DNA of 64,000 nucleotides, from assembly GCA_021513715.1 (NCBI GenBank), contig CP084167.1, positions 658,117-722,116 of the forward strand, given 5' to 3'. Source of the DNA: Candidatus Heimdallarchaeum endolithica (GTDB lineage Archaea > Asgardarchaeota > Heimdallarchaeia > Heimdallarchaeales > Heimdallarchaeaceae). Of the stretch, positions 1 through 44,722 are shown one piece after another. The notes under the pieces are model-generated. The model was not told the origin of the DNA, searched no databases, and worked only from the letters and a program-made list of their open reading frames with translations. Both the position numbers and the translations under genes were made by a program. Within the stretch, counting starts at the first letter, position 1, and every line of letters starts with the position of its first letter.

Positions 1-1539
1 AGTTGTTTCATTCCAATAATTACCATATATTCCATTATCAAAATAACTATTAGAAGAATAAAATGTGAATTTAGTATTATAAAAATTGTTTAGAAGAAAA
101 GTCGCGTTAGGATAATTTACTACTATATTAGAGTTAATAAAATTACAACCAAGTATAAGTGCATGTTCAAGAGAAGATGGAAAGTTCAAATTGTCATCTG
201 AAAAAGAAGAATTCGAGATTCTTAATTGTTTTAGTTTTGAAAAACCATAACCAAAAGGTACTCCCCTAAAAGTATACCCATTCTTCATAAAAGAACAATT
301 TTCTATAAATAAATTATTCCCCCATGCTATAATTCCCCAACTGTTTCCACTTATTATAGACGAAGTTATTTTCAATTTCGATGTTTCAGAAACAGAAACT
401 CCAACATCGCCATCTTTGATAATACTGTCAGTCAAAGTAATATTATTACTTTGATATACAGAGATCGGGCATGTAAAATCTTTAAGTATTACATTTTCGC
501 TATTAATTAGTACTAATTCTCCTTCAATAGTTGTTGATTCTATAAGAACATCTTTTTGTGATAAAACAAATCTTATATCTTTTCCATTTACTTTATTGTT
601 AATGGAATTAAAGTTAGTAAAATCTCCACCAAAGACTCGAATGGTCTCATTAAACAGTTCATTTTCGTGCAGATATAAATTCGAACCCCCATAAATCTCA
701 AAACCACAAGAGTTTCTATATAATTTATTTCCAAAAATACTAATATTATTTCCATCCCAAATTTCAATACTCCACCTACCATCATAGATATAATTGTAAG
801 ACACTTGTGAATCTTGAAGATTACCAAAGAGAGAAATTGCATCACCAAAATTGTTAAAAGTATTAGAAGATATAACACAATTTGTTCCACTTCCTAGTTT
901 AAGTCCAGAATATGAATAACTATAAGCTGTAAAAACATTATTTGTTATAAATAATCTATCAACACTGCAATCTACACGAATAGCAGCATAATATTCGTTA
1001 TTATTACCATCACTAATGAAACTATTATTTGTAATAGTAATTCCACTTAATACTTCACTTGAATAAAGACGAATTGCTATGAAATAATTAGTAAAAGTAG
1101 TATTTCTTATTAAAGCTGAATCTGTTTGGATTACTAGTCCATGCGTAAGCTTAGTGAAGTCAGATGTTCTATAGCCCAAATCACTTAAGTAACTATTTTC
1201 GATTCTAATTTCTGAGCCTTTTTCAGCGATAATAACATATTTAAGTGTTGGATCAATTGATTTGATTGTGGAATTATTAATATACAAATGACCACCTGAT
1301 TCAACGTGAATACTATATTGTCCATTATCTGTCAAGTTAAAAGAAAGAATAGAATTGTAAATATAACATTCTTCTCCATCTTGAATAACAATATCATTAT
1401 CAAGAAGTATAGACGTATTAACATAGTCAGTTAATTGATAGGAAGGAAATGTATCATCATTAATGAATCCTAAAACATCTTGATTTGAGGAAATCCTTTT
1501 ATTTGGATTACTTGTTCTGATAATTAATACAACCAACAT
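1..1539 (-). CDS. Secreted right-handed beta-helix repeat protein (NosD/CASH-like), 3' end beyond window start
   Basis: Open minus-strand frame reads from ATG at 1539 through position 1 with no stop; N-terminal hydrophobic segment (MLVVLIIRTS); repeated N-x-F/I-x-x-N-x-x-G-I motifs typical of parallel beta-helix repeats. Not in ORF track because it has no stop inside the window. Alternative TTG start at 1584. Confidence 0.6.
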   Translation of the reverse strand, partial: MLVVLIIRTSNPNKRISSNQDVLGFINDDTFPSYQLTDYVNTSILLDNDIVIQDGEECYIYNSILSFNLTDNGQYSIHVESGGHLYINNSTIKSIDPTLKYVIIAEKGSEIRIENSYLSDLGYRTSDFTKLTHGLVIQTDSALIRNTTFTNYFIAIRLYSSEVLSGITITNNSFISDGNNNEYYAAIRVDCSVDRLFITNNVFTAYSYSYSGLKLGSGTNCVISSNTFNNFGDAISLFGNLQDSQVSYNYIYDGRWSIEIWDGNNISIFGNKLYRNSCGFEIYGGSNLYLHENELFNETIRVFGGDFTNFNSINNKVNGKDIRFVLSQKDVLIESTTIEGELVLINSENVILKDFTCPISVYQSNNITLTDSIIKDGDVGVSVSETSKLKITSSIISGNSWGIIAWGNNLFIENCSFMKNGYTFRGVPFGYGFSKLKQLRISNSSFSDDNLNFPSSLEHALILGCNFINSNIVVNYPNATFLLNNFYNTKFTFYSSNSYFDNGIYGNYWNETT

Positions 1540-1960
1540 TAGAAGTAATATTGATCTAACAAGATTCTTATTAAATCTAATCAAATAAACACCAAATTTT
1601 TAACTAATTTTTTTCTTTAAAAAGATTATCTAAGTATCACTAGCAATCATAAAAACATGACTTTTATAAAACTTATTTTTATAAGTAATAATGTTTTGCT
1701 AATTATATACAGATTTAGTTTTGAAATTTATTTGTTTGACAATGATATAGTAATTCAGCAAAAGTAACTTTCACCGCTATATAATAAACTTAATTCCCGA
1801 TATTTTATTGGTGCTAAAGACTATAGTTACCAAATAAAGAAAAACATATGTTTTTACTTTTGTTCAACAAATAATTTTATATTGGGTTATAACCCATAAT
1901 CCTCTAGAAGTCTAAAACGAGAAAAAAGAGGCGATAAAAATAGGATATGGTTCAGGAAGA

Positions 1961-2362
1961 ATGCGTGGTGGAGGGAGAGGAAGGGGAGGAGGATTTGGAT
2001 TAGGAGCAGGAGGAGCCTGTATTTGTCCAGTGTGTGGTACAAAAGCTGCTCATGCAAGAGGGGTACCTTGTTTTCAATCTCGATGCCCACAATGTGGAGC
2101 ACCAATGACTAGAGCAGAAGCTTATGCCGGTCCCCAACCACAGTATAGTAAAAACGTACAAGAAGAGAAAGAATACAAATTTACTACAGCAGCAAAACCA
2201 CATATAGATCAATCTAGATGTAAGGGGTGTGCTTTATGCATAAATAGTTGTCCTTTTAATGTTATTAGAATGGAAAATGGTCATGCAATTATTGATTCTT
2301 CACGCTGCAGAAGTTGCGGAGTATGTATTTCTTCTTGTCCTGAAGGAGCAATAGTTTATTAG
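1961..2362 (+). CDS. Ferredoxin, 2x[4Fe-4S], with Gly/Arg-rich N-terminus and Cys4 zinc-ribbon-like motif
   Basis: C-terminal CKGCALCINSCP and CRSCGVCISSCP motifs; N-terminal GGGRGRGGGFG followed by CxCPVC...CPQC. Confidence 0.75.
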   Translation: MRGGGRGRGGGFGLGAGGACICPVCGTKAAHARGVPCFQSRCPQCGAPMTRAEAYAGPQPQYSKNVQEEKEYKFTTAAKPHIDQSRCKGCALCINSCPFNVIRMENGHAIIDSSRCRSCGVCISSCPEGAIVY

Positions 2363-2404
2363 AAAATGTAGAAAAAAATTAAAAATAGTTGAAAAAAATT
2401 CTTT

Positions 2405-2782
2405 TTATATTTTTAGTGGTTCAATGATTATACTATCTTTATCAAAAGTTGCCAAGTAAAAGTCTTCTGTTAAAATGAGACAACCAGTTGGACAAATATC
2501 TTGACATAATGCACAGAAGCAGCACTTTCCTAAATCTATTTGTGGATAAGTTTTTGGGTATTTTTCTTTATATTCTTTTTTTACTTCTACCATCTTTATT
2601 GCTTTATTTAAGCATATTTTGGCACATGATCCACAAGAGATGCAGTTATCGATGTCAAACTTATGTTTTGCTCTCTCTCTTTCTGGTATCTCTACTTTCT
2701 CCATTGGAAAAAGAACAGTCATTGGTCTTTTGAACAGATTCTTGAATATTTCTGAAATAACACTTAGTTTCATTGTTATCAC
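2405..2782 (-). CDS. NuoI-like 2x[4Fe-4S] subunit of a complex-I-like module
   Basis: Two Cys clusters CISCGSCAKIC and CCFCALCQDICP; last gene of the B-C-D-I operon, 2 nt after NuoD-like gene. Confidence 0.75.
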   Translation of the reverse strand: MITMKLSVISEIFKNLFKRPMTVLFPMEKVEIPERERAKHKFDIDNCISCGSCAKICLNKAIKMVEVKKEYKEKYPKTYPQIDLGKCCFCALCQDICPTGCLILTEDFYLATFDKDSIIIEPLKI

Positions 2783-2783
2783 C

Positions 2784-3896
2784 TCATCTATCTACATCAG
2801 CAGGACATTGGTTTAAACTCCAATAAATAGCAGGGACGTCAGCATAATAAGAATCAGTAAGTAAATGCTTTAAAATAGGTATCATATGAGTAAAAGAAGG
2901 ACCTCTGATCTTAACTCTATAAGGAGTCTTTTTTCCTGTAGCAATCATATAAATAGCGCCTTCTCCTCTTGATAGTTCATTACGTGTATAGGTTTCTCCT
3001 TTAGCTTTGCGGAAGTGAACAATAGGTTTCATATTAGGCGTTTTTACTTCCCCTTTTGGCATTCTGTCAATTGCTTGCTTAACTATCTTCTTGCTTTCTT
3101 CTATTTCTTGCATAGCTATCAAATATCTTGAATAAGCATCTCCTTCATCAAGAACTGGAATTTCAAACTCCAATTCATCATAAATTTCATAAGGATCATC
3201 TCTTCTAACATCTGAAGCAACCCCGCTAGCCCTTAAAATAGGTCCTGTTGCACCTAGTTTAATAGCTTCTTCTTTCGTTAACACTCCTACTTCTTTGAAT
3301 CTTTCCAACCATGCAGGATTTTCTTTTTTTGCGAATTTATGCATATAGTCAATCTTTTCAAATAAAGTAAGAATCTTTTTTTCTGCTTTCTCTGGTAAAT
3401 CTTTTCTTACTCCTCCAGGGCAGATATATCCAGCTGGATAAAGTCTTCCTCCAGTAATATAATCGAACACATCTAGCATATAGTCTCTGTATCCCATTGC
3501 AACATTAAATCCAGTAGTAAATCCTGTTCCCATTGACATCACAGCGTACCATATAAAGTGCGATTGTATTCTTGACAGTTCTGCAAGTATAACTCTGATG
3601 TATTTAGCTCTTTCTGGGATATCATAACCCATTAAAGTATCAACAGCTTCTGCATGGAGAAGATTCCACTGAAGAGGTTCTAAAACACATATTCTATCTG
3701 ATAATACGGAGTTTTGCATAGGTTCTCTATATTCCATTAACTTTTCAAAACCTCTATGTAAATATCCTGGATCTACTACAGCTTTCATCACTCTTTCTCC
3801 ACGAAGTTGAACTCTCACTGAAAAGTTTCCTGAACCAGGGTGAGCTGGTCCAAAGTACATTTCAAAATCTCCTTGTTTTTCTTCTATTTCAGTCAT
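2784..3896 (-). CDS. NuoD-like 49-kDa subunit (complex I / group 4 hydrogenase large-subunit fold, no NiFe-ligand Cys pairs)
   Basis: N-terminal FGPAHPGSGNF and C-terminal ...CPADVDR resemble NuoD; the N- and C-terminal CxxC pairs of [NiFe] hydrogenase large subunits are absent. Confidence 0.8.
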   Translation of the reverse strand: MTEIEEKQGDFEMYFGPAHPGSGNFSVRVQLRGERVMKAVVDPGYLHRGFEKLMEYREPMQNSVLSDRICVLEPLQWNLLHAEAVDTLMGYDIPERAKYIRVILAELSRIQSHFIWYAVMSMGTGFTTGFNVAMGYRDYMLDVFDYITGGRLYPAGYICPGGVRKDLPEKAEKKILTLFEKIDYMHKFAKKENPAWLERFKEVGVLTKEEAIKLGATGPILRASGVASDVRRDDPYEIYDELEFEIPVLDEGDAYSRYLIAMQEIEESKKIVKQAIDRMPKGEVKTPNMKPIVHFRKAKGETYTRNELSRGEGAIYMIATGKKTPYRVKIRGPSFTHMIPILKHLLTDSYYADVPAIYWSLNQCPADVDR

Positions 3897-4438
3897 TTTT
3901 TCACCTCAAAATAATTATCTTCTCTGGGATTACTTTCATTATAATATTCTTGTTGTACATATTTTCGCCAGTCGAAGTCCTTTCTAAACGGAGGAGGGCC
4001 ATCCCAGTCTTCCAACATTAGTGGAGTAAGATTAATGTTTCCTTTAAAAATCACGCCATAAAACTCATGGCATTCTCTTTCACATAATTCTGCATTTTTA
4101 CTCCATAGAGAAGTAACAGAAGATATTGTAGGATTTTCTCTATTTATCCTTGCTTTTATCGTTAAAAGCATTTTTTCTTTATAGGACCATAAATGGTAAG
4201 CAATTTCAAAATTATTCTTTTCAATCCAATCTGTAACACTTATTGTAGAAAGATGTTCAAAACCCATATCATAAGCAATCGAACAAGCATCTACTATTTC
4301 TTTAGGTTCAATAGATACCCAAAGTCTTTTTTTTCTTTGGATATTAACCTTCTTGTTTAATTTCTTACTTAAAGCCGTTACAATTTTTTCTTCTTTATAA
4401 TTATTCTTCTCTTTCTCTACTACACTCATTTTACTCAC
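3893..4438 (-). CDS. NuoC-like 30-kDa subunit
   Basis: ERECHEFYGVIFKGN signature; 4-bp overlap with NuoD-like and NuoB-like genes. Confidence 0.75.
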   Translation of the reverse strand: MSKMSVVEKEKNNYKEEKIVTALSKKLNKKVNIQRKKRLWVSIEPKEIVDACSIAYDMGFEHLSTISVTDWIEKNNFEIAYHLWSYKEKMLLTIKARINRENPTISSVTSLWSKNAELCERECHEFYGVIFKGNINLTPLMLEDWDGPPPFRKDFDWRKYVQQEYYNESNPREDNYFEVKK

Positions 4439-4875
4439 TCATCCGGCATTCCATGAACATGTTGAACTATTTTGAAAACAGCATCAAAAACAGCTTCAGG
4501 TCTGGGAGGACAACCAGGAATATACATGGTTACAGGAAGATAATCTTCAAGCTTCTTAACAGTGTTATATGAATCCCAATACATCCCACCTGTTATTGGA
4601 CATGAACCCAATGCTAAGACAAACTTTGGATCAGGCATTTGCTCATAAATCTTTTGTGCTCTCTTCATTGATTTTGGTGTCTGAAAACCAGCAATAAACA
4701 ACACATCAGCCTTTCTTGGTGAATTAACTGTTATCATTCCAAAACGTTCCATATCCCACCTTGAACCTACAACTGGGACAAGTTCAGTAAATCCACAAGA
4801 GTTAAACCAATTAAAAACCCAAATAGCTTTTACAAAATATTTCATCACAGTTTTCTTCTTAACCATCCTTTCCAC
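4435..4875 (-). CDS. NuoB-like 20-kDa subunit (hydrogenase small-subunit fold)
   Basis: GSCPITGG and GCPPRPE motifs; first motif is SC rather than the usual CC. Confidence 0.8.
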   Translation of the reverse strand: MERMVKKKTVMKYFVKAIWVFNWFNSCGFTELVPVVGSRWDMERFGMITVNSPRKADVLFIAGFQTPKSMKRAQKIYEQMPDPKFVLALGSCPITGGMYWDSYNTVKKLEDYLPVTMYIPGCPPRPEAVFDAVFKIVQHVHGMPDE

Positions 4876-5274
4876 TTTCTTCTCTTTTGTTTAGAAACAC
4901 AATACACAAATTCTTGCTATAATTATTTAAAAAAAAATCTACTTACATATATCTTTTAGGGTAAGGATTTAATCGTTTTGCTATACTTACAAGCCCAAAA
5001 ATGATAAAATAGGTCAATGACTTTTCGGATAACCGAACATTAATCAGTATAAACACCTGTCTAATCGTGTGAATAATTACGCACATGTTCAAAATGGTGA
5101 ATAACTGCGAATTAATTAACAATATATGTGTTTAAGAAAAAGCACATCTGCATTTAAGAATAGAAATTAATCAAACTATTAAATCTAAGAATTTGAGGAA
5201 ATAGATAAAAAAGTAAAAAAAAAGGAAAATAAAGAGACATCTACATTTATAACTTATAATACTCAAATAAATAA

Positions 5275-5400
5275 AAAAATTGTTATAAATGTGAAGGAAA
5301 ATTTGGTTAAGGTGTTCAGGAAAATAAACATTTGTAACGTGGTTCCCGTATGGGTAAGTTAATAACGTACAATCTGTTCTCCAATAAGCAAATAAATTTT
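5275..5400 (-). pseudogene. C-terminal fragment of an alpha/beta-hydrolase paralog
   Basis: Minus-strand translation ENLFAYWRTDCTLLTYPYGNHVTNVYFPEHLNQIFL aligns with the C-terminus of the esterase at 12161-13915 (ETYLNYGRKDCALLTFPYGSHAADIYFPGHFNQIFL); no upstream body or start. Confidence 0.5.
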
Positions 5401-5459
5401 CTTATCAAATCTTTTAAACTGTTAAATAAAAGAAAGAAGAAAAAAAAAGAGTGTAAAAA

Positions 5460-6020
5460 CTATTTTGATAATAGCTCAATAAAATTAGAAACAAATTTTT
5501 CGACTTTTTCCCAATCTCGTAAATCGATTACTTTATTCTTTGTATCATCATATTGTTTGGAAATAATTTCGACCATCTTTTTATCTAACCAGGTCATTTT
5601 GCTTTCAGGAGACAAATCAAGTTTTCCTCCAAATGCTTCAACTAAATTAAAGTTTAATCCGTATTTTTGTAGTCTAGAGAATATATATTCATTCTTTATG
5701 CTCTCATATTTCTCAGGATCTGCTGCAAAGGCAGAAGAAACAAAAAAAGCTTTAATTCCAATGTATTTTTTTAATGCTTCCTTTTCGTTTTTTACGAATT
5801 TTTTCACACTTTTTACCCACATAGACATCTTAATTCCAGTTCCAATAATAAGACCAGAATAATTGTTTATTTTTGGAAGTTCTTGTTTTTGAATTTGACC
5901 TAAGTCAATAATTTCAACATAAAAGTTATTTTTTTCCAATAATTCTTTAATTCTTTTAGTTACCTCTTCTTTGGCACCGTATCTAGAGCCAAAGACAATT
6001 AAAATTTTTTTATCATTCAT
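5460..6020 (-). CDS. Flavodoxin-like protein
   Basis: N-terminal KILIVFGSRYGAKEE flavodoxin-type FMN-binding loop; about 186 aa. Confidence 0.6.
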   Translation of the reverse strand: MNDKKILIVFGSRYGAKEEVTKRIKELLEKNNFYVEIIDLGQIQKQELPKINNYSGLIIGTGIKMSMWVKSVKKFVKNEKEALKKYIGIKAFFVSSAFAADPEKYESIKNEYIFSRLQKYGLNFNLVEAFGGKLDLSPESKMTWLDKKMVEIISKQYDDTKNKVIDLRDWEKVEKFVSNFIELLSK

Positions 6021-6097
6021 AAAAAAAGCAATGCTTGGTTATATTAAAATCTAGTGAAATATAATAATTGAAGAAAATTGTAAAAAAAAGAAAAAAA

Positions 6098-7777
6098 TTA
6101 TAATCTAATTCCGAATGTGGATAATTTCACACTAAACAAGAAAACAAAGAATACAATTGACCACACAGATCCTATAATACTGAGAATCAAAGCTTTTTTG
6201 TTTATTCCATTTTTCATTTCTGTTTTTTGAGCTTCTTTTGAAATAAAGTAAGAAATAAGAGAAAATGGAAAGATAAATAAACCTATTTTCGAAAGTTTAA
6301 GTGCAAAACTCGATTCAGTATGTTTTTCTCTATTGTTTCTATTAAGATCTACCCAGTCGACATTGTAAAAGTTCCCTTGAACATTCAATATATCTTTCTT
6401 CCACCACCTTTTTTCTGTTTCTTGTTTAGGTTCCTTTATGAAAAGATTGCGTAGAAAAACAATTATCCACTTCATGCTACCAAAATAGCCTATTTTCTCC
6501 CAGAAATAAGTCAAAACGTGGTAAAAAGCAAGCGACAATATTATCACAATAATTGTTCCACTCCAAGGAAGTCTTACATATGTGTCAGTCATTACTAAGC
6601 TAACAATAAAGTAGAACAAATTGTAGAAGTATTGCATGTTGTAAATAGTAAAAGGAATAAAACCTAATCGTCTAATGAATTTAGTGTGGTTAGCAAAAAT
6701 AGCACCTTTTCCTCTGAATTCAACTATTCGAAACATTACAGAGATTAAACAAAAGGAAAAACCATTTAAACTCAAAAATTGGAAAAGCCATCCAACTACT
6801 GGAACACCATTCTCTGTTGTCCAATATCTATGTTCACTTATATGTAAATACAAGTTTAGCCCTGCATCCATTCCTTGATTATTGATAACTAAGAATACGT
6901 TTAGAAAGACACCTATTATTCCAATAACAAACATTGCAATACTTATGAAAAAGAACTTTTTTAGAAAAGAAAGTTTAATTTTCTCTTCTTTTTGAGAGAT
7001 ATAAATTCCAAAAATACTCCCAGCGAAACTTGCAGTTAAATAAGGAAAGACTGGTTCCCACATTGCAGCTAATGGACCAAGGAAAAAGCGTAAAACAAAC
7101 TGTCCGAAGGAAGTTATACCAATTACACCAAATTCTACATTTTTTCCTGTAGCAGGATCAATAGCATAGGGATAACCAGGAACTAATTTATCTGATATAA
7201 ACCACATTAGAGGAGTAAAAGCAAGAGCTAACACAGCAAATAAGCTATAGAAAATAATTAAAGTAGAAGGCTTTCTCCATTTTTCGTTTCGTATAAGAAG
7301 CGCATGAACGATACCATTTATAATAATGCACCACGCAATTGTATGAACAGTCTCAAAAAATAAGAAACGCCATAAGGCTTGATCATATGTTCCTGCTTTT
7401 AAGTTGTTTAAATGAAGAAAAACTTCACCAATTGTTCCGTGATAACCTAAAATAGATTCAGATAACATCGCAAAAAAGAGAAGAAAAGAACCAGTAATTA
7501 CTTGACGAAGCATAATCTGTTTCCAATTATCCCCTCTTGCTAATTGTCTTTGCATAGAAATCATATTTCCTATAGCTGAAATAATTAGAAAAAGACCTGC
7601 AAGTCCGCCTAGAAAAGGAAGAACAACCAGTAATAAAACTTGAAATAAAGGTAATTGATCTAATTTAGCAACTAAGGAATCAATATCAAGGGTATCACTT
7701 ATTATATGAAGCACAATCATAAGAAAGATAGATATTCCTCTCAAGAAATCAATAGTAAAAAATCGTTTTTTAATCAT
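6098..7777 (-). CDS. Polytopic membrane protein, acyltransferase-3/DUF1624-like
   Basis: RFFTIDFLRGISIFLMIVLHI N-terminal motif; many predicted TM helices. Start taken at internal ATG 7777 rather than the track start 7894, which lies beyond a 14-nt homopolymer. Confidence 0.45.
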   Translation of the reverse strand: MIKKRFFTIDFLRGISIFLMIVLHIISDTLDIDSLVAKLDQLPLFQVLLLVVLPFLGGLAGLFLIISAIGNMISMQRQLARGDNWKQIMLRQVITGSFLLFFAMLSESILGYHGTIGEVFLHLNNLKAGTYDQALWRFLFFETVHTIAWCIIINGIVHALLIRNEKWRKPSTLIIFYSLFAVLALAFTPLMWFISDKLVPGYPYAIDPATGKNVEFGVIGITSFGQFVLRFFLGPLAAMWEPVFPYLTASFAGSIFGIYISQKEEKIKLSFLKKFFFISIAMFVIGIIGVFLNVFLVINNQGMDAGLNLYLHISEHRYWTTENGVPVVGWLFQFLSLNGFSFCLISVMFRIVEFRGKGAIFANHTKFIRRLGFIPFTIYNMQYFYNLFYFIVSLVMTDTYVRLPWSGTIIVIILSLAFYHVLTYFWEKIGYFGSMKWIIVFLRNLFIKEPKQETEKRWWKKDILNVQGNFYNVDWVDLNRNNREKHTESSFALKLSKIGLFIFPFSLISYFISKEAQKTEMKNGINKKALILSIIGSVWSIVFFVFLFSVKLSTFGIRL

Positions 7778-12160: not shown

Positions 12161-13915
12161 TTAAGAATTATAAAGTATTAGGAAACGCTCCATGTAGTAA
12201 AGAAAAATTTGATTGAAATGTCCTGGAAAATAGATATCTGCAGCATGGCTTCCATATGGGAAAGTTAACAACGCACAATCTTTTCTTCCGTAATTTAAGT
12301 AAGTTTCTTTTATCAATTCTGATTCTTCTATTAACCTATCTTTCTCACCTTGAAAGATCAAACATGGAGGAGAATTTTGGTTAATTAATAAACTTGGGTT
12401 GACCCACTCTTCTTTACTTCTTGTTGCAAATTCATACTGAACATTATTTGCTGGATAATAAGGGATTAACCCTTTTATTGTTAGTTTATCTGAAAAAATA
12501 TTTGTATAATTTTCTGAAACTATAGATAACGCTGTTGCACAAGCGAGTTGACCTCCCGCTGATCCTCCTGAAATAAAAACAGAAGATAAGTTAGCTCCAT
12601 ATTTAGCAGCATTCTTTTCTAAATATAAAGTGAAATTTCCTATATGTCTCAACATATCATCGATTATAAAATCTCCATAGACATATTCGGGTCCTGATTG
12701 AAGAGAACCAAAGACTTGTGTATTATTATTTAAGCCATACTGGATATCAAAAACGATGTAGCCCTGAGCGGCTAGATATCTATTCATCATTTGAACATTC
12801 ATCATTCCTTTATCTCCAATAACCCATCCTCCACCATGGATTCTGATAATTGTAGCGTTTCTTCCTGGTAAATCATTTGTAGGTTTTTTTGGTAAATAAG
12901 CATCGAAGTAAAGTTTAATGTTTTTATCAACCAAATAATTACTTTCACTCCCATCAAAGAAAAGAACGTTAGATATTGTTTCGCATTCCGGATTACCAGT
13001 TCCTAGAAAATAACCAGTTAGCTGAAAAGGTGTTTCTAATAGATAATCTTCATAACCTGAATCTTCTATGATTTTTCTCCAATCACCGTCGAAATAAGAA
13101 TTGAACGCGTTACTAAATTCTTTGTCTGTAGAACTAATCGTAGAGGGAATATAGCCCATAGGAATAAAAGATATGGAACTAAATGCCAATCCTAAAACAA
13201 TAATAGTTGTAGCAGTGAATTTCATTTCGCTTATTTTTTTCTTTATTGTGTAAAGAAGGAAGAAAGTAGAATTGTAGATAACTATCCCCAGTATTAAAGC
13301 TCCTGGAATAAAAAAAACGTTCATGAAGAAAAAGAGCGTGTTTTGAATTCTTGGAGCAAAGAAGATTATTATAGCAAATAAACCCATAATCATACCAAAT
13401 AAAGCTTCTATTGTCAAGAGTATTTTCAAAAATTTGTAAAGGATCTTCTTTTTATTTGCTCTTACATCAACTTTGTTTCTGTTTTCCTCTTTCTTTTTTG
13501 AATCTAAAAAGAAAAACAGCAATATCACTAAGGGAATAAAAAAGAGGAGAATAAAGGTTAATAGAATGACTGAACTAAATAAAGCATTAACTACTTTATC
13601 GGGAGTGTAGCCTACAAAATTAATGAAAAAGAGAACAAGAACACTCAGATTTGTATATAGATAAAATATATAAGTTAATATCCTCACCCTTTTGAGCTCA
13701 GTTCCTTCTTTTTCTCTCACTTTGCCTATTAATGCAAAAAACAAACTGTTCAAGAAAATTGTGAGAATAATCAGTAAACCATTAATGTTCCAAACAAACA
13801 AATTTGAGGGAAAAATGAAATAAATTGTTCCTGTAATAATGTTAAGAAGATTTAAAGCAAATAAAACCGAACAAATATAGAAACTCAATGATTTCATAAA
13901 AAAATAAAATTTCAA
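12161..13915 (-). CDS. Membrane-anchored alpha/beta-hydrolase (hormone-sensitive-lipase-type esterase)
   Basis: N-terminal multi-TM region followed by HGGGW oxyanion-hole motif and GGSAGG nucleophile elbow. Confidence 0.7.
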   Translation of the reverse strand: MKFYFFMKSLSFYICSVLFALNLLNIITGTIYFIFPSNLFVWNINGLLIILTIFLNSLFFALIGKVREKEGTELKRVRILTYIFYLYTNLSVLVLFFINFVGYTPDKVVNALFSSVILLTFILLFFIPLVILLFFFLDSKKKEENRNKVDVRANKKKILYKFLKILLTIEALFGMIMGLFAIIIFFAPRIQNTLFFFMNVFFIPGALILGIVIYNSTFFLLYTIKKKISEMKFTATTIIVLGLAFSSISFIPMGYIPSTISSTDKEFSNAFNSYFDGDWRKIIEDSGYEDYLLETPFQLTGYFLGTGNPECETISNVLFFDGSESNYLVDKNIKLYFDAYLPKKPTNDLPGRNATIIRIHGGGWVIGDKGMMNVQMMNRYLAAQGYIVFDIQYGLNNNTQVFGSLQSGPEYVYGDFIIDDMLRHIGNFTLYLEKNAAKYGANLSSVFISGGSAGGQLACATALSIVSENYTNIFSDKLTIKGLIPYYPANNVQYEFATRSKEEWVNPSLLINQNSPPCLIFQGEKDRLIEESELIKETYLNYGRKDCALLTFPYGSHAADIYFPGHFNQIFLYYMERFLILYNS

Positions 13916-17432: not shown

Positions 17433-18587
17433 GTGAAAAAGGTGTCAACCAAAAGTAATGAAAATCAAGTTGTATCCACTCAAACCAGTGAGAATACAAA
17501 CATTTTGCGTTTACCAGCAGAAAAGAAGTACGAAAAAGAGTTAGAGTTTCTTCATTCTATTGATAAAGGCAAGAAGCCAACAAATTGGTACCTTTCTCCT
17601 CAGATGTTACGAACTTTTATTTTGGGTTCAAATGAACACAATATGAAAATAGAAAAAAAGTTTTACGGCGATCAGAGTTTAGTAGAAAGAGCAATAGTTA
17701 CATTAGCGAGTGATAGGGGATTATTACTTATAGGTGATCCTGGTACAGGAAAATCTTGGTTAGCAGAACTTCTTGCAGCAGGAATAAGTAGAAATTCTAC
17801 TCTTGTTGTACAAGGGACTGCTGCTACTACAGAAGACCAAATAAAATACTCATGGAATATCGCTTCAGTAATAGCTTCTGGCCAATCTCTTGAAACTCTT
17901 ATTCCATCTCCAATAATGCAAGCTATGGAAAAAGGATGTATTGGACGTTTTGAGGAACTTACTCGTTGTACTTCAGATGTACAGGATTCTCTTATTTCTA
18001 TTCTTTCAGAAAAATATATTTCTATTCCTGAACTTTCTGAGCAAATTGTCCATGCAAAAGAAGGGTTCAATGTTATTGCAACTGCTAACAGTAGAGATAA
18101 AGGAGTAAATGATCTTTCCTCTGCATTAAAACGGAGATTCAATTTTGTAACAATACCGATAGTAACGGATACAAAAACTGAGAAAAACATAATCAACTTC
18201 CGAATCAAGGATCTAATGGAAAAGAAAGGTCTAAGTACATCAGTTCCACAACCACTAATTGATATTTTATTAGAAACTTTCAACGCTCTTCGAGATACAA
18301 ATAAATCAAAAAAGAATGAAAATGAAAGACTTGAATCTTCTCTCTCAACAGCAGAACAAATAGGTATCTTAGAAGATGCGCTCTTACAATCGATATTTTT
18401 CACGGAGTACACTCAAGAGCAAGCACTAGCTCGTTCAATAATTGGAGGTTTAACTAGACGTTTGCCTGAAGATCTTACGCTCATGAACAAGTTTTGGCAT
18501 TCTGTTGTCAAAGAAAAAAGTCAAAAGTCTGAAAACTGGAAAAAGTATTTCTCTGAAGGAAAGAAAACAATAAAGACTTTTACATGA
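17433..18587 (+). CDS. MoxR/AAA_5-like AAA+ ATPase (operon gene 1)
   Basis: Walker A GDPGTGKS, Walker B-like IGRFEEL, sensor ATANS, RRF arginine; GTG start. Confidence 0.7.
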   Translation: MKKVSTKSNENQVVSTQTSENTNILRLPAEKKYEKELEFLHSIDKGKKPTNWYLSPQMLRTFILGSNEHNMKIEKKFYGDQSLVERAIVTLASDRGLLLIGDPGTGKSWLAELLAAGISRNSTLVVQGTAATTEDQIKYSWNIASVIASGQSLETLIPSPIMQAMEKGCIGRFEELTRCTSDVQDSLISILSEKYISIPELSEQIVHAKEGFNVIATANSRDKGVNDLSSALKRRFNFVTIPIVTDTKTEKNIINFRIKDLMEKKGLSTSVPQPLIDILLETFNALRDTNKSKKNENERLESSLSTAEQIGILEDALLQSIFFTEYTQEQALARSIIGGLTRRLPEDLTLMNKFWHSVVKEKSQKSENWKKYFSEGKKTIKTFT

Positions 18588-18603
18588 ACAGAGGTAGGTA
18601 TTA

Positions 18604-21537
18604 ATGGCAACAAGTGGCTCCTCTTCAATTTCGGAACAACTTGATACAAATAAAAGTCTCTTAAAGCAACTGATAGAGGTGTCAAAGGAAATTGAGAAAG
18701 AAAAACAATCAAATTCTGTTGAAATTTTTTTAAAGACAATAATCAAAGATATCAAAAGAGTAGAAAATGAAACATTAGAGATTATTCCTGTTTCACATTA
18801 CTCTCTTTCTTCTGCTGTTCATGTATGGCAGAGATTATCAGAAAAAAAACCTAAGGTTATATTTCTTGAAGCACCAGAGGATTTTGAGAGAGAATTGGAA
18901 AATATAAAATATTGCACCCCTCCTGTAGCTTTTCAAGGAATATTAGTCAAAACAGAAGAAATTGACCATGTGTTCTTGCCTATTAACTCTTATACAATCG
19001 TTTCAGAAGCTTCTGCAGAATATCAAGCAATAAAATATGCTTTTGAAAACCCAGGAACAGAGCTAATTTTTGTTGATGCTCCTTGTACTAATCGTGTAAA
19101 ATGGGAGCAAAAATATCTTGCAACTAAAAAATATAAAGCAAAAAAAGAAGAGATTAATGCTAATAACTACAATTTCATTATTGGAAACACGATTCCAACA
19201 AAAAAGGAATTTCTAATCACACTTCTTGAAAAAACAAATTTCGATGATTATAGTCTTTGGTGGGAACAAGTAGCTGAAAATGCACTTTTAGATCTCTCTT
19301 ATGATAATTATAGATATGTAATGGTTTTATTAGGGAGTGTTTTTCGTCGCTCTGGTTCTGATGATAAATTAGAAATAATTAGTTCTCTAAGAGATAAATT
19401 CATGTGGAATAAAATTAAAAGTGTGATAAATTCAAAAAAACTTCAACCAGAAGACTGTGTTTTTATTTGTGGAGCAGCACATGCAATTGCAACAGTTGAA
19501 GAATGGGGAATGAAAGGAATAAAGAAAAAAAATAGACGCAGTAGAAAATCAGAATGGAAATACGGAATAAATCAAGTCGACTACAATTTAATAGATCAAA
19601 TTGCTAATAAAACTCCTGGTTCCACTTCTGAAATACATGCGAAGTGGGATGCAATAAAGAGATCTGTTTACAAAAATAAAAAAGAAGAAATAACTTTAGA
19701 ACTAGACAAGTATAATCAAGCTGTTCATGATAAAATACTCACTTGGGCTTCTGAAACAGTGAAAAAAGCGAGAAAAGCAGGTTATATTACTAGCCCTGCA
19801 GACAGTATTGCAATTGTAGAGCTTACATACGCTCTTAAAGAAATTAGAAATAGAGCACGAATCACACCACGAGAATTTATTGATGCGGCAGTTACAAGTA
19901 TTCAAAAAAACGATTTATATCTTCAACCAGTAGAGGAACTAATTGATGAATACATATTTCCTAATGTTTTAGGAAAAGTAGGGTATAAAGCCTTGCCAAG
20001 CTTGGCAAAAGATGTTTTTGATCGACTTTCTATCTTAAAAATTTCAAGAGATTCAAACAGAGTTCAAAGAGTGCTATTAGATTTAGATAAACAACCAGAA
20101 CTCAAACCTGTTTCTGATTTACTCTGGATGTTAAAACACATGAATATTAATGTTGTTCCAATTGCTGGAAAAAAAACCCTTGGAAAACATATTAAACAAG
20201 AATCATGGGATTTATACATCTACAAAAACAAAAACCCTCTGATTTGGCTTTCATTAGAAGGAATATCAGTAGAAGAAGTTTTTCGTTCCCGAATAACGAA
20301 AAAAGTGAAAAAAGATCCTTCAATTTTATCTATTTTAGAAGCTATAAAATCGGTACTTACTTATTTGAATTATAAGGATATATTATTATTCACTCTCTCT
20401 AATTTACTATTTTCTAATCTTGAAGGTATAATATTTGAAGATCAAAAAAAACTATATTCTTTAACTTTAGAGCTTTTAAACTACTTAAGAACTCTCAAAG
20501 AAGGTATCCCAAAATGGTTTATCTATTACATTGTTAGTTCTTACAGACAATATTGTCAAGAGCTAGTTAAAGCAGCAGCAGATAACTCAATCTCTGCAGA
20601 ACAGTTTTCCATGATTTTCTCTTTCATTTTCAAAATCGAAGGAATAGCCCTAACAGAAGGAGCAAGTAGAGAAGAATTAGAAATAGCAATCAAACTAACT
20701 CTTGACTTGGATGAAATTCCTGAAAATAAGAAAATTATAGCTTTAGCTGCTAATAGTTTGCTTAAGCAAGAAAATGAAAAAGAACTAAGACAAATTATAT
20801 CAAAGGTCTTCTGGAATCCACAAATTATTCAATCAGCTTCAGAAATTGTTTTAGCTTTAGTATATTCTTCAAATTTTGCTCCCAACCTAATATTTCTTTT
20901 TATAGAATTCTTAGACCAATGTTTTCGAAGATTGAGCGATAATCTTATCTCTCAGTGGTTACCACTATTGACTTCACAAATGAAAAAGTTAGATCAAAAC
21001 TATGTTATACAAATCGCTCAAATAGTCAAGAGGTATTATAATCGAGATCTCAAACAAATTGAAGTAATGAATGTTTGGTACGATGAAAGTTTATATGCCA
21101 CGATAACAGACAGAAGAGAAAGAGAAACAGAGATAGCAATTGAAACTGAAAATATTATTATATCTACTAACTTTATTCATAATTTTATTTATGCTTTTCC
21201 AGAAACACTTAACCAACTTTGCTTACTATTAGGTTTTGAACAAATAAAACAATTTCCACTATTTAGTCAATCAACTACTTCAATTAGTTCAATTGAAAAA
21301 ACAGTAGAAAAAGAGATTCCACTTATTACAAGAATTCTAATTAAGAATCCTGCAACAATAATCAATATTAAAAAAATTTTTGAGATAAAAAAAGAGTTCA
21401 CTATCACTAAACAAGATTTGGAAAAATCTAATAAAATTGACAAAGAAAAAGAAGATCTAAAGACATGTGACTCTCCATTTTCTATTTTAAAATCTCATTC
21501 TCAAACCCTTGAGAAAACTAGTGAATTATTAAGGTGA
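18604..21537 (+). CDS. Large uncharacterised protein, possibly DUF5682-like (operon gene 2)
   Basis: 977 aa; N-terminal IPVSHYS...VIFLEAPED...PPVAF resembles, from memory, the N-terminal motif of DUF5682-type proteins; otherwise alpha-helical with no catalytic motif recognised. Confidence 0.5.
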   Translation: MATSGSSSISEQLDTNKSLLKQLIEVSKEIEKEKQSNSVEIFLKTIIKDIKRVENETLEIIPVSHYSLSSAVHVWQRLSEKKPKVIFLEAPEDFERELENIKYCTPPVAFQGILVKTEEIDHVFLPINSYTIVSEASAEYQAIKYAFENPGTELIFVDAPCTNRVKWEQKYLATKKYKAKKEEINANNYNFIIGNTIPTKKEFLITLLEKTNFDDYSLWWEQVAENALLDLSYDNYRYVMVLLGSVFRRSGSDDKLEIISSLRDKFMWNKIKSVINSKKLQPEDCVFICGAAHAIATVEEWGMKGIKKKNRRSRKSEWKYGINQVDYNLIDQIANKTPGSTSEIHAKWDAIKRSVYKNKKEEITLELDKYNQAVHDKILTWASETVKKARKAGYITSPADSIAIVELTYALKEIRNRARITPREFIDAAVTSIQKNDLYLQPVEELIDEYIFPNVLGKVGYKALPSLAKDVFDRLSILKISRDSNRVQRVLLDLDKQPELKPVSDLLWMLKHMNINVVPIAGKKTLGKHIKQESWDLYIYKNKNPLIWLSLEGISVEEVFRSRITKKVKKDPSILSILEAIKSVLTYLNYKDILLFTLSNLLFSNLEGIIFEDQKKLYSLTLELLNYLRTLKEGIPKWFIYYIVSSYRQYCQELVKAAADNSISAEQFSMIFSFIFKIEGIALTEGASREELEIAIKLTLDLDEIPENKKIIALAANSLLKQENEKELRQIISKVFWNPQIIQSASEIVLALVYSSNFAPNLIFLFIEFLDQCFRRLSDNLISQWLPLLTSQMKKLDQNYVIQIAQIVKRYYNRDLKQIEVMNVWYDESLYATITDRRERETEIAIETENIIISTNFIHNFIYAFPETLNQLCLLLGFEQIKQFPLFSQSTTSISSIEKTVEKEIPLITRILIKNPATIINIKKIFEIKKEFTITKQDLEKSNKIDKEKEDLKTCDSPFSILKSHSQTLEKTSELLR

Positions 21538-21544
21538 AAAAATA

Positions 21545-22024
21545 ATGGGTAATAAAATAATAGAAGAAAAAGAAGAAAAAAACAATTTTTATCTTTCTAT
21601 TATCCCTAGAAATACACCTCCTAGAAGAAATTATAAAATCAAAAAAGTCCCTTTTATGGAGTTTAGAGATAACAAAATTCAAGGAGTAGTTTCTAGCGGA
21701 AGTAGTTTTGAACGAGTATATGTTTGTGTTATAAATCTAGAAGACAAAACATTTACATGCCACACAAACAACAATCGTCCTTGTGGAGGACTAAGAGAAA
21801 GAATGTGTAGTCACATCAAAGCTCTACTTGATGTAGCACTACGCAATCAGGAAACTGAATTACTGTTTATGCAATACGATTTTGACTTTTTTGACCCTGA
21901 TGGAAGTAGACGCTATTCTGATGTTTTTACTCGCTTTCAAGAACAATTACATTTTCTAGAAATTAAAATGGATGAGAAAGAAAATTTTCCTGAAATGAAT
22001 TGGTTTGTAGGTGATTTATCATGA
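21545..22024 (+). CDS. SWIM-like zinc-finger protein (operon gene 3)
   Basis: FTCHTNNNRPCGGLRERMCSHIKALL fits the SWIM pattern with the usual second Cys replaced by His. Confidence 0.5.
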   Translation: MGNKIIEEKEEKNNFYLSIIPRNTPPRRNYKIKKVPFMEFRDNKIQGVVSSGSSFERVYVCVINLEDKTFTCHTNNNRPCGGLRERMCSHIKALLDVALRNQETELLFMQYDFDFFDPDGSRRYSDVFTRFQEQLHFLEIKMDEKENFPEMNWFVGDLS

Positions 22025-23331
22025 ACCAAATAATTATTGAAGAAAAGACTCTTGATGAAATAAGAAAAGTTCAATCTGTTTTGCAAGAACTTAGCGAGAT
22101 CTTCATGATAGGGCTAGGTAAACTTACCAAGAAAGAAAAAGAAATTTTCGATAAAGTTAATGAAGGTTTTTCGCATACTCCTCTCTCTGAAGTTCTTGCA
22201 AATAGTTTTTCCAAACTCAAAAACTCTGATTTTTCTGAAGATGTTATTACTCCCCTTGTTTATGCTATCTTATCTCTTCAAGGAGCAATATATGATGCTT
22301 TATTCACTACTGTAGGTGAAGAAAGAACATTTACAGAAATAGGTAAAGTAGAATATTACGATTTTTCACAAGAAAAAGCTGTTCTTATGGAAAATATAAG
22401 AAAATGGTTAATTAGCTTACTCATTAGCGGATTTAAAGATTTACAACTAGATAATATAGATTCGTTTTCCTCTGTGCTTGAAACAATTTCCTCATATCCT
22501 GAATTAACCCGATTAAATGTCTTGTTGCGAGGATTAATCTGCGATTTTAAATTTACACAGAATAAAAAAGAACTAAAAAAATATGCTATTCGATTTCTGG
22601 ATCTTTGGACAAAAAGTTATTTTCTCACTTTAATGGAAATAAAAACTAAAAATAAACGAATTGAAAATGCTAAATTCTATCCCATAGCCTATCAACACTT
22701 CATCCACGAACAATTCTTTGTAGGAATAATTAGAGGAATTGTACAAACAAAGGATAACAGTCTATTTGTTAATTTAGAATTTCCTAGTTTTGTATCACCT
22801 CTTATTCCATCAAAAGAGTTTTACAGCTTAATCTATAAAAACAATGAAGAACTTTTTACTGCTCTTAAGCAATCCAAGGTTGTGATTATTGAAGAAGCTT
22901 CTCTAAGTCCTCAAGGAGTAATGCACATAGAAAAATTTACAGTTTCTGATAAATCATTCAATATTAAAGAAGTTTATGAGAATACAAATAATTTCAAAGA
23001 TATCTATTTAATAAAAAAACCTTCTTTGGATAGACATCATGTACATTACTTTCTACCATTTTTTATCGAAGAAAAACTGCCAAAATTGAGTACCACAGAG
23101 GACACTAAAATTAAATTTAGAAACAATAAATTCAAAAAAAATTCAAAACATTTTAAAAAACCTAAATTTGTTGAACTTCGTTACGATAACGATTTCTATT
23201 GGAATATAATTCAATTTTATTTACCAAAGTTTCCAGAAGAAATTTTGTATTTTGAAACAAAAAATATCAAAATTAAAACAGAAACTTATGAGCTTATGAA
23301 AGAAAAAAGTAGTAAAATACTTAGGAAGTGA
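22021..23331 (+). CDS. Uncharacterised protein (operon gene 4)
   Basis: 436 aa; 4-bp overlap with the SWIM gene; no motif recognised. Confidence 0.5.
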   Translation: MNQIIIEEKTLDEIRKVQSVLQELSEIFMIGLGKLTKKEKEIFDKVNEGFSHTPLSEVLANSFSKLKNSDFSEDVITPLVYAILSLQGAIYDALFTTVGEERTFTEIGKVEYYDFSQEKAVLMENIRKWLISLLISGFKDLQLDNIDSFSSVLETISSYPELTRLNVLLRGLICDFKFTQNKKELKKYAIRFLDLWTKSYFLTLMEIKTKNKRIENAKFYPIAYQHFIHEQFFVGIIRGIVQTKDNSLFVNLEFPSFVSPLIPSKEFYSLIYKNNEELFTALKQSKVVIIEEASLSPQGVMHIEKFTVSDKSFNIKEVYENTNNFKDIYLIKKPSLDRHHVHYFLPFFIEEKLPKLSTTEDTKIKFRNNKFKKNSKHFKKPKFVELRYDNDFYWNIIQFYLPKFPEEILYFETKNIKIKTETYELMKEKSSKILRK

Positions 23332-23335
23332 ATAA

Positions 23336-40596: not shown

Positions 40597-40700
40597 TCTT
40601 TGTTCACTCAATAGACTTGGATTACACTTTTGGGCACTAGAGAAACATAGGGGTGATTCATAAATTTTTCTCCAGGAGTAAGGAGGTTAAGAGACTAATG
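40597..40700 (-). pseudogene. 3'-terminal fragment of an IS481-like transposase gene
   Basis: Reverse complement of 40621-40700 is near-identical to 44540-44627 (…TPGERFMNHPYVSLVPKSVTQVY*). Confidence 0.6.
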
Positions 40701-40729
40701 AGGTCAACTAAAATTGTAGTAAAAAAGTA

Positions 40730-44627: not shown

Positions 44628-44722
44628 GTAAACACTCACTTATTTCTCTGCCTAAATTTTATATAGTAGTACCTTTTTATCCTCTTAATACAAATACATA
44701 TGACCAATACGGGTGATTTAAA

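Follow-up and report, generated by a model that had tools for sequence, protein, structure and literature searches.

In this study, a 64,000-nt stretch of the genome of the Asgard archaeon Candidatus (Ca.) Heimdallarchaeum endolithica (contig CP084167.1, positions 658,117 to 722,116 of the forward strand), called the window below and numbered from its first letter, was analysed around the open reading frame (ORF) at 1961–2362 on the plus strand. This ORF starts with ATG and encodes a protein of 133 amino acids (aa), here called the ribbon-ferredoxin, in which a Gly/Arg-rich tail and a Cys-rich ribbon are joined by a linker to a ferredoxin domain. The gene converges on four genes for a redox module resembling part of the MBS complex of Pyrococcus furiosus, its membrane-bound sulfane sulfur reductase. 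With somewhat less than even confidence, we read the protein as a ferredoxin-type redox partner of this module, its ribbon and tail together being a docking element or an extra metal site. The product is identical to GenBank entry UJG44087.1 (4Fe-4S binding protein) of Ca. H. endolithica, and a protein of Ca. H. aukensis is 98% identical to it. The gene has thus already been deposited, under a bland annotation; its C-terminal domain is ordinary and its N-terminal domain is common yet undescribed. Neither the fusion nor its position next to an MBS-like module turned up in a limited literature search.

From the N-terminus, the protein consists of MRGGGRGRGGGFGLGAGGACICPVCGTKAAHARGVPCFQSRCPQCGAPMTR, the linker, and two CxxCxxCxxxCP motifs at residues 87–98 and 116–127. 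The Pfam families Fer4, Fer4_6, Fer4_7, Fer4_9, and Fer4_10 scored above their cut-offs (46.6 bits against 21.1 for Fer4, 38.1 against 25.5 for Fer4_10, and 36.1 against 27 for Fer4_7), and the Fer4-type matches spanned residues 79–131. This bears out the standard 2×[4Fe-4S] core of an earlier prediction made from the sequence alone (the original prediction). AlphaFold2 (AF2) confidently predicted a (beta-alpha-beta)2 ferredoxin fold for the domain, with a block-mean predicted local distance difference test score (pLDDT) of 88–92. In Foldseek, the domain matched with a probability of 1.00, a root-mean-square deviation of 0.7–1.6 Å to the ferredoxin domains of HdrA and HydB, and a TM-score of 0.89 to the C. 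acidurici ferredoxin (1FDN). By its motifs and predicted fold, the region of residues 79–133 is a clostridial-type ferredoxin, presumably of low potential and carrying two [4Fe-4S] clusters. Clostridial-type ferredoxins, including these three, share with it the two motifs within about 55 residues and the fold predicted for it, but nothing in them corresponds to its tail, ribbon, and linker, a conserved stretch of about 78 residues added at the N-terminus. Residues 55–76 of the linker had pLDDT values below 50 in the full-length AF2 model, and the product is predicted to be a soluble iron-sulfur protein of two modules joined by a disordered linker.

Sixteen of the first 18 residues are Gly or Arg. 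This tail agrees with the Gly-rich leader, GGxGxGPGG, of the family consensus given below, and its residues 1–16 had pLDDT values below 50 in the full-length model. In the ribbon, two CPxC knuckles, CPVC at residues 22–25 and CPQC at residues 42–45, supply C22, C25, C42, and C45, and C20, H31, and C37 form an accessory set. The Gly/Arg-rich, zinc-ribbon-like extension had been foreseen correctly; the Cys4 arrangement claimed for it gives way to six conserved Cys and one His. When AF2 was run with an alignment of 70 sequences, residues 21–50 reached a block-mean pLDDT of 85–92 and formed a small two-knuckle beta structure, with short strands at residues 19–21 and 28–30 and a beta-bridge involving residues 41, 48, and 50–51.

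Close homologues found by word-index search fell into four clusters at 90% identity, all with source names of Heimdallarchaeaceae. Identity to these Heimdall orthologues was 83–94% in the tail, 58–88% in the ribbon, 73–89% in the ferredoxin core, and 11–63% in the linker; for more distant fusions, it was 55–78% over tail and ribbon and approximately 7–11% in the linker. Among orthologues, the tail and ribbon are as strongly conserved as the ferredoxin core, and the linker is free to vary. The GC-rich N-terminal codons of the original prediction were also confirmed, the GC content being 0.44–0.53 over 1905–2129 and 0.18–0.30 in the flanks, because of Gly, Arg, Ala, Pro, and Cys codons in an AT-rich genome. 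That the start is mis-called, the N-terminal region being untranslated and the real start lying downstream, is hardly credible: no internal start before the ferredoxin domain keeps a conserved product, the tail and ribbon hold the identities given above while the linker drifts, the domain has homologues in over 1000 protein clusters, and in-frame conservation continues even upstream of the ATG. The N-terminus is therefore translated and under selection, and the objection raised with the original prediction falls away.

Pfam and NCBIfam searches with the N-terminal 74 aa (E ≤ 10) returned only sub-threshold generic zinc-ribbon matches, from which no family could be assigned; the best Pfam match, DNA_ligase_ZBD, scored 23.9 bits, under its cut-off of 25.8, and all others were lower. 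A word-index homologue search with the N-terminal 61 aa gave one candidate and no significant match, a sequence-profile search of the PDB with the ribbon gave generic zinc ribbons and no specific relative, and Foldseek of the ribbon model against the PDB gave weak generic zinc-ribbon or rubredoxin knuckles only (best E 0.58). The Pfam check suggested earlier thus yielded no family above cut-off; homology to a large uncurated family was found by exhaustive HMMER (phmmer) search with residues 1–61 against 1.8 billion representative proteins. The N-terminus alone matched 1184 clusters (50% identity) at E ≤ 1e-3 and 62 at E ≤ 1e-10, the best E being 1e-26. With a profile of small family members, at least 3193 clusters (90% identity) were found at E ≤ 1e-6 among 8000 scored candidates.

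The consensus of 203 domain instances was GGxGxGPGGxCxCPxCGx4HxxGxPCx4CPxCGxxMxR. Column conservation in these instances was 93% for C20, 100% for C22, 99% for C25, 94% for H31, 95% for C37, 100% for C42, 99% for C45, 78% for M49, and 75% for R51. The window ribbon has every conserved position (G17, G18, C20, C22, P23, C25, G26, H31, G34, P36, C37, C42, P43, C45, G46, M49, and R51). C37 was also missing in 8 of the 15 instances without C20, compared with 2 of the 188 with C20 (Fisher p = 4e-9, some instances being repeats within one protein and not independent). Since C20 and C37 are lost together beyond chance, they appear to work as a pair. The two invariant knuckles are expected to bind a single metal in an M(Cys)4 site of the rubredoxin or zinc-ribbon kind, and the C20/C37 pair and H31 would offer further ligands. 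Zinc ribbons and rubredoxin knuckles such as those of Rpo12/RpoP, the adenylate kinase lid, and HVO_2753 resemble the window ribbon in having two CPxC-type knuckles and a small beta-hairpin fold. They are set apart from it by Foldseek E values of at least 0.58 and Pfam scores below the cut-offs, and by the three further ligand-type residues and the fixed Gly-rich leader of the ribbon family.

A typical family member stands alone and has 50–100 aa, and the domain is frequent in anaerobic organisms. No dedicated Pfam or NCBIfam model for the ribbon was found in scans of the window N-terminus and 150 family members, and the small members carry the NCBI names "DUF5320 domain-containing", "DUF5320 family", or hypothetical. 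These small proteins share the ribbon and the Gly/Arg leader with the window protein (domain identity 50–70%). They consist of MPRGDGTGP, a Gly/Arg-rich stretch, and the ribbon, whereas the window protein lacks MPRGDGTGP and is fused to a ferredoxin. Their name is due to that N-terminal motif; what the Pfam DUF5320 model describes is this motif together with a coiled-coil tail, and the ribbon lies outside it. Membership of the window protein in DUF5320 was rejected, as it gave no PF17253 match even at E ≤ 10 and the motif is absent; it begins MRGGGRG, or (M)KIGYGSGR if translation starts upstream. Judged by these sequence comparisons, the N-terminal module is a true homologous domain from a very large uncurated family. 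Definition of this family is the most useful by-product of the analysis, the individual gene being a modest finding: thousands of "hypothetical" or "DUF5320" proteins are concerned, and a family model together with one metal analysis would improve their annotation.

The neighbouring genes had been described in the original prediction as a Nuo-like operon. This holds by Pfam and NCBIfam, and comparison with the P. furiosus MBS chains MbsL, MbsJ, and MbsN (6U8Y) sharpens it to the MBS/MBX type. In searches of the PDB, the D-like subunit matched MbsL at 8e-88, compared with 3e-68 for Nqo4 and 9e-43 for MbhL, and the B-like subunit matched MbsJ at 1.5e-42, compared with 4e-37 for NdhK and 2.5e-31 for MbhJ. 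For the I-like subunit, the best match was cyanobacterial NdhI (1.2e-22), followed by MbsN (6u8y_N, 1.2e-20). The B-like subunit has only three Cys available for the proximal cluster. The Cys of the D-like subunit, in RICVLEP and QCPADVDR, are exactly both Cys retained by MbsL, RICVlEP being aligned with RICVpEP and QCPaDvDR with NCPpDiDR of 6u8y_L; MbsL retains two of the four ancestral [NiFe] cysteines, C85 and C385 (PMC7684303). Judged by their D and B subunits, the genes (BCDI below) are of the MBS/MBX type, that is, MbsJKLN-like, with the I subunit as an exception. The gene order B-C-D-I equals J-K-L-N of P. furiosus MBS (6U8Y; PMC7684303), which differs in having a membrane arm. At this locus, BCDI stands alone as a peripheral module.

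The electron donor of MBS is ferredoxin (PMC7684303), and the adjacent ferredoxin gene is therefore a sensible partner. Ferredoxin docking on NuoI has been proposed for NuoBCDI arms without NuoEFG in a preprint on Heimdallarchaeia (10.1101/2024.07.04.601786). The Heimdallarchaeaceae ribbon-ferredoxin would then be the redox partner of the adjacent MbsJKLN-like (NuoBCDI-like) module. Electrons would pass from its ferredoxin domain to the distal cluster of the NuoI/MbsN-like subunit, as for MBS and for cyanobacterial NDH-1, which is reportedly dependent on ferredoxin, and the ribbon and tail would act as a tether, a docking element, or an extra metal centre. The donor ferredoxin of P. furiosus itself is a separate single-cluster protein and is not known to carry a ribbon. 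If the redox-partner reading is true, the protein is a concrete candidate for the ferredoxin feeding the NuoEFG-less complex-I-like or MBS-like modules of Heimdallarchaeia, a donor that published work merely postulates, and the ribbon gives it a built-in handle for pull-down or docking studies.

The convergent arrangement of the ferredoxin and NuoI-like genes was found in the window, in Ca. H. aukensis (our locus number L011), and in a lineage with 54% protein identity (L001–L003). In L001–L003, the ribbon-ferredoxin gene is directly preceded, on its own strand, by a flavodoxin-family homologue; in the window, the flavodoxin-family gene is upstream of NuoB, and in Ca. H. aukensis none was found within 8 kb on either side of the ferredoxin gene. 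A second arrangement was seen in a metagenome contig (L008, 309–6280), where genes for NuoB, NuoC, NuoD, a NuoI::GltD-like fusion (PRK13984, 667 aa), a thioesterase, a NifX-like protein, and a ribbon-ferredoxin (P0057) follow one another on one strand with short gaps. P0057 is 45% identical to the window protein and is encoded 1.3 kb downstream of NuoB-C-D-(NuoI::GltD); the NifX-like gene overlaps the start of its gene. This cluster suggests a soluble NAD(P)H-linked NuoBCD complex.

Several observations weigh against the redox-partner reading. Because the genes are convergent, the ribbon-ferredoxin and BCDI are not co-transcribed. No membrane subunits or Mrp-like membrane arm (MbsA-H, M) were found in the approximately 27 kb beside the BCDI genes. 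In L006, with a ferredoxin 83% identical, the BCDI cassette is absent from the corresponding stretch (1164–2099), and the ferredoxin gene converges directly on an esterase gene orthologous to window 12161–13915. A relic of the esterase 3′ end is present at window 5264–5380, and from this and the L006 junction, the BCDI cassette (window 2363–5380) is concluded to be an insertion or a deletion. Eight more fusion genes were confirmed as single ORFs, and only that of L008 has NuoBCD nearby; NuoBCD was not found within about 3–8 kb at L009, L010, L012, and L051, nor near the fusion in any of the 80 metagenome loci. The co-occurrence check proposed earlier thus gave a divided answer: NuoBCD stands beside the fusion in two Heimdall lineages and in L008, and in 46 GTDB genome loci and the 80 metagenome loci no further case was found among the readable loci. 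The claim of an electron carrier for the module stands as that of a sensible partner; that the carrier is dedicated is not established, given the convergent genes, its own predicted promoter and operator, L006 without BCDI, and the one fusion in eight with NuoBCD.

The same observations bear on the view that the protein is a generic housekeeping ferredoxin placed beside BCDI by accident, its ribbon being a structural zinc ribbon for stability, solubility, or oligomerisation. Such a view accounts for a cassette inserted or deleted between the ferredoxin and esterase genes, for the unrelated neighbours of most fusion genes elsewhere, for the generic zinc ribbons among the structural matches, and for the plain GenBank name. 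Nevertheless, we consider it unlikely. The NuoBCD adjacency recurs at L008, where NuoD is only 35% identical and the gene order differs from that of the window, which we judge unlikely to be due to chance; with seven conserved potential ligands, a co-varying Cys pair among them, the ribbon has more than a structural Cys4 zinc ribbon needs; and the strong association with Fe-S proteins throughout the family argues for a specific role.

This association was examined through fusions and neighbouring genes. Fusion partners were counted among the best 150 family representatives and included the NifX-like Nitro_FeMo-Co domain (n = 15), PDZ (n = 13), Fer4 (n = 7), DUF134 (n = 3), trypsin-like protease (n = 2), cation-efflux ZT_dimer (n = 2), and an RnfB-type FeS domain (n = 1); Sigma70_r4_2 was matched by three representatives. 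The layout of ribbon followed by ferredoxin also occurs in five unrelated lineages (P0057, P0064, P0069, P0089, and L057), and the fusion is present in bacterial genomes, namely those of a deltaproteobacterium (L012) and a member of Peptococcaceae (L051). The reverse order, ferredoxin followed by ribbon, was found in P0072 and P0088. In L058, a separate small ferredoxin gene directly follows the ribbon gene, and in L059 and L126 a gene for a MinD-type ATPase with a Fer4 insert does so. From this pattern of fused and adjacent genes, it can be argued that the ribbon works with ferredoxin-like domains. Many "fusions" in tblastn proved on inspection to be two adjacent genes, and P0159, a 284-aa cluster member, was left out as an apparent assembly chimera. 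A quite different use of the module was seen in P0005, P0006, P0011, P0017, and P0049, proteins of 985–1516 aa with 3–5 tandem ribbon copies.

Ribbon genes at 40 species-representative genome loci were flanked by 150 ORFs, in which the commonest families were Mrp/NUBPL-type ParA ATPases (n = 24), Fer4 (n = 22), Nitro_FeMo-Co (n = 13), DUF5320 (n = 10), NifH-like proteins (n = 6), and sigma-54 activators (n = 5). In L025 (Desulfarculaceae), the gene order is IscU-like NifU_N, MinD-Fer4 ATPase, an unassigned ORF, and ribbon. Ribbon genes usually keep company with genes for Fe-S cluster assembly and carrier proteins rather than with respiratory modules, which also counts against a redox partner of BCDI. 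The window differs from this company: a motif search of its 64 kb gave no second ribbon, Gly/Arg tract, MinD/Mrp Walker A motif, or NifX-like gene, and instead of the family-typical Fe-S context (Mrp/MinD-Fer4, NifX-like, and DUF5320), MbsJKLN-like neighbours were found.

The Fe-S-centred neighbours at the 40 loci fit at least as well with an Fe-S cluster handling factor of the orange-protein (ORP) or IssA kind, which would not primarily be an electron shuttle. Here, the ribbon would bind iron or a labile Fe-S cluster, the cationic tail would bind anionic iron-sulfide, and the ferredoxin domain would supply reducing equivalents, so that the protein would help with the assembly, storage, or insertion of clusters, perhaps including the BCDI module's own three [4Fe-4S] clusters, as a minimal, ATPase-less version of ORP-type systems. 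The Nitro_FeMo-Co, Fer4, DUF134, and RnfB-type fusions, the gene order of L025, and the NifX-like overlap in L008 speak for it, as does the likeness of the family inventory to the make-up of the Desulfovibrio ORP cluster. That cluster contains the MinD-Fer4 ATPases Orp3 and Orp4, the NifX-like Orp8, the MrpORP protein Orp9, and the small Orp5 (DVU2105), reported to be homologous to a small protein (Dde_3197) shown to bind [2Fe-2S] (PMC6345978). Its component types, together with sigma-54 activators, are the commonest neighbours or fusion partners of the ribbon family, and in both the ORP cluster and ribbon loci a small gene lies upstream of two MinD-Fer4 ATPase genes. The possible link of the ribbon to Orp5/Dde_3197 is one of gene position only, and no named Desulfovibrio match was among the best 120 of the family profile search.

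Support of a second kind comes from P. furiosus IssA, which binds thioferrate through a cationic Gly/Arg/aromatic tail (PMC5524996) and is reportedly induced, like MBS, by elemental sulfur (PMC8219758). As in the window protein, a cationic, disordered Gly/Arg-rich segment is attached to an Fe-S-related domain, and some ribbon family members have an IssA-like layout of NifX-like domain, Gly/Arg tract, and ribbon. The tail of IssA differs, however, in following a NifX-like domain (IPR003731/Nitro_FeMo-Co) and in having a single Cys and no ribbon, whereas the window protein has no NifX-like domain (no PF02579 match). The Heimdall locus lacks the ATPase and NifX-like genes of the ORP cluster, as well as a second ribbon, and the simplest view of a plain 2×[4Fe-4S] ferredoxin domain is that of an electron carrier. 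We therefore regard a role in cluster handling as possible but doubtful.

A combination of the two roles is conceivable and, in our opinion, rather improbable. In this case, the tail and ribbon would themselves bind iron or iron-sulfide, perhaps as a [2Fe-2S]-type or rubredoxin-like centre, and might be the same domain as the [2Fe-2S]-binding small protein of the ORP operon. The resulting three-centre ferredoxin would form a physical link between a stand-alone MBS-like module that reduces sulfane sulfur and the formation or delivery of Fe-S clusters. If this is true, a close archaeal relative of the eukaryotes would have its sulfur reduction tied to Fe-S biogenesis, and an uncharacterised family of thousands would gain a function.

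A nucleic-acid-binding or regulatory protein was also considered, in which the RGG-like tail and zinc ribbon would bind RNA or DNA and the ferredoxin domain would be a redox sensor. RNA-binding proteins with RGG stretches and zinc fingers resemble the tail-ribbon layout, which serves as a lead only, and both DUF134 and Sigma70_r4_2 occur in 3 of the 150 family representatives. Neither a helix-turn-helix nor any known nucleic-acid-binding domain is present in the window protein, Fe-S metabolism overwhelmingly dominates the context of the family, and the window holds a single ribbon gene, which has no regulatory-type neighbours, making this explanation very unlikely.

The region upstream of the gene is conserved as well (Table 1). 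The promoter and palindrome region is kept in L004 and L006 and, with a single mismatch inside the palindrome, in L001, whose protein is 54% identical. No second copy of the palindrome exists in the window (chance expectation 0.16 matches at ≤2 mismatches), and it looks like a candidate repressor operator. A SurR site was rejected, the spacing being GTTn2AAC in the palindrome and GTTn3AAC in SurR sites. With its own promoter and conserved palindromic candidate operator, the ribbon-ferredoxin is taken to be under a control distinct from that of the BCDI operon. Ca. H. aukensis does not share the window sequence upstream of 1855, and an Rfam search of window 1–6200 (E ≤ 0.1) gave no match. At the other end of the gene, the stop codon is at 2360–2362 and the convergent NuoI-like ORF ends at 2405; the nearby convergent stop had been predicted correctly, with a distance of 43 bp in place of the 42 nt measured here.

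Between the promoter and the ATG, GGCGATAAAAAT is invariant across four lineages. The KIGYGSGR codons (1937–1960) are likewise conserved in four lineages, with third positions accounting for 7 of the 10 substitutions in these 8 codons. L004 has ATG at the place of window ATA 1934, L001 has AGA at the place of window ATG 1961, and the distant relative P0089 starts M-IGYGRGRG. No ATG, GTG, or TTG is present in the window between the stop at 1913–1915 and 1961. The (I)KIGYGSGR codons may represent a non-AUG start (at ATA 1934 or 1940), an N-terminal extension of 7–9 residues, or the relic of a recently shortened N-terminus. Owing to the in-frame conservation upstream and the lack of a canonical start, the exact N-terminus is uncertain by up to 9 residues, and the domain content is unaffected. 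An 18-codon acidic ORF, MVQEECVVEGEEGEEDLD, overlaps the Gly/Arg codons in the +1 frame (1947–2003); its ATG and stop are kept in L001, and conservation of the main frame probably accounts for it.

Table 1 Positions of the ribbon-ferredoxin gene parts, its upstream elements, and the neighbouring genes in the window
Position	Strand	Feature	Basis
1875–1896	+	TATA-like TTTTATAT (1875–1882) abutting the perfect 14-bp palindrome TGGGTTATAACCCA (1883–1896)	Sequence and conservation
1928–1960	+	Shine-Dalgarno-like GAGGCGAT (1928–1935), then in-frame (I)KIGYGSGR codons before ATG 1961	Conservation
1961–2014	+	Residues 1–18, Gly/Arg-rich cationic tail MRGGGRGRGGGFGLGAGG, predicted disordered	pLDDT, orthologue identity
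2015–2113	+	Residues 19–51, Cys6-His ribbon ACICPVCGTKAAHARGVPCFQSRCPQCGAPMTR	HMMER family, column conservation, AF2
2114–2194	+	Residues 52–78, variable linker of ~25 residues, predicted disordered	pLDDT, identity to relatives
2195–2362	+	Residues 79–133 and stop codon, predicted clostridial-type 2×[4Fe-4S] ferredoxin domain	Pfam, AF2, Foldseek
2363–2404		42-nt A/T-rich spacer separating the two convergent stop codons	Sequence reading
2405–2782	−	NuoI/MbsN-like 2×[4Fe-4S] subunit, expected ferredoxin docking site	TIGR01971 NuoI, 2.6e-29
2784–3896	−	NuoD/MbsL-like subunit	End-to-end match to 6u8y_L, 8e-88
3893–4438	−	NuoC/MbsK-like subunit	Pfam Complex1_30kDa, 7e-29
4435–4875	−	NuoB/MbsJ-like subunit	Match to 6u8y_J, 1.5e-42
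5460–6020	−	Flavodoxin_5-family protein upstream of the BCDI genes, loosely associated	Pfam PF12724, 1e-17

Some other features of the window were recorded. A gene for a repeat-rich, beta-helix-like protein occupies 1–1600 on the minus strand, divergent from the ferredoxin gene, with 533 codons open and the left end of the window reached within the gene. At 17433–24946 on the plus strand, genes for a MoxR-like AAA_5 ATPase, a DUF5682 protein (977 aa), two family-less proteins, and a VWA/CoxE-like protein are present. Copies or fragments of an rve-integrase insertion element were found at 44049–44636 and 40601–40722, 88–90% identical to an element beside the ferredoxin gene of L006. A 1041-aa ORF (37356–40481, minus strand) contains at least three 144-nt tandem repeat units at 38428–38864, which resemble a beta-propeller/FG-GAP-like gene in L001.

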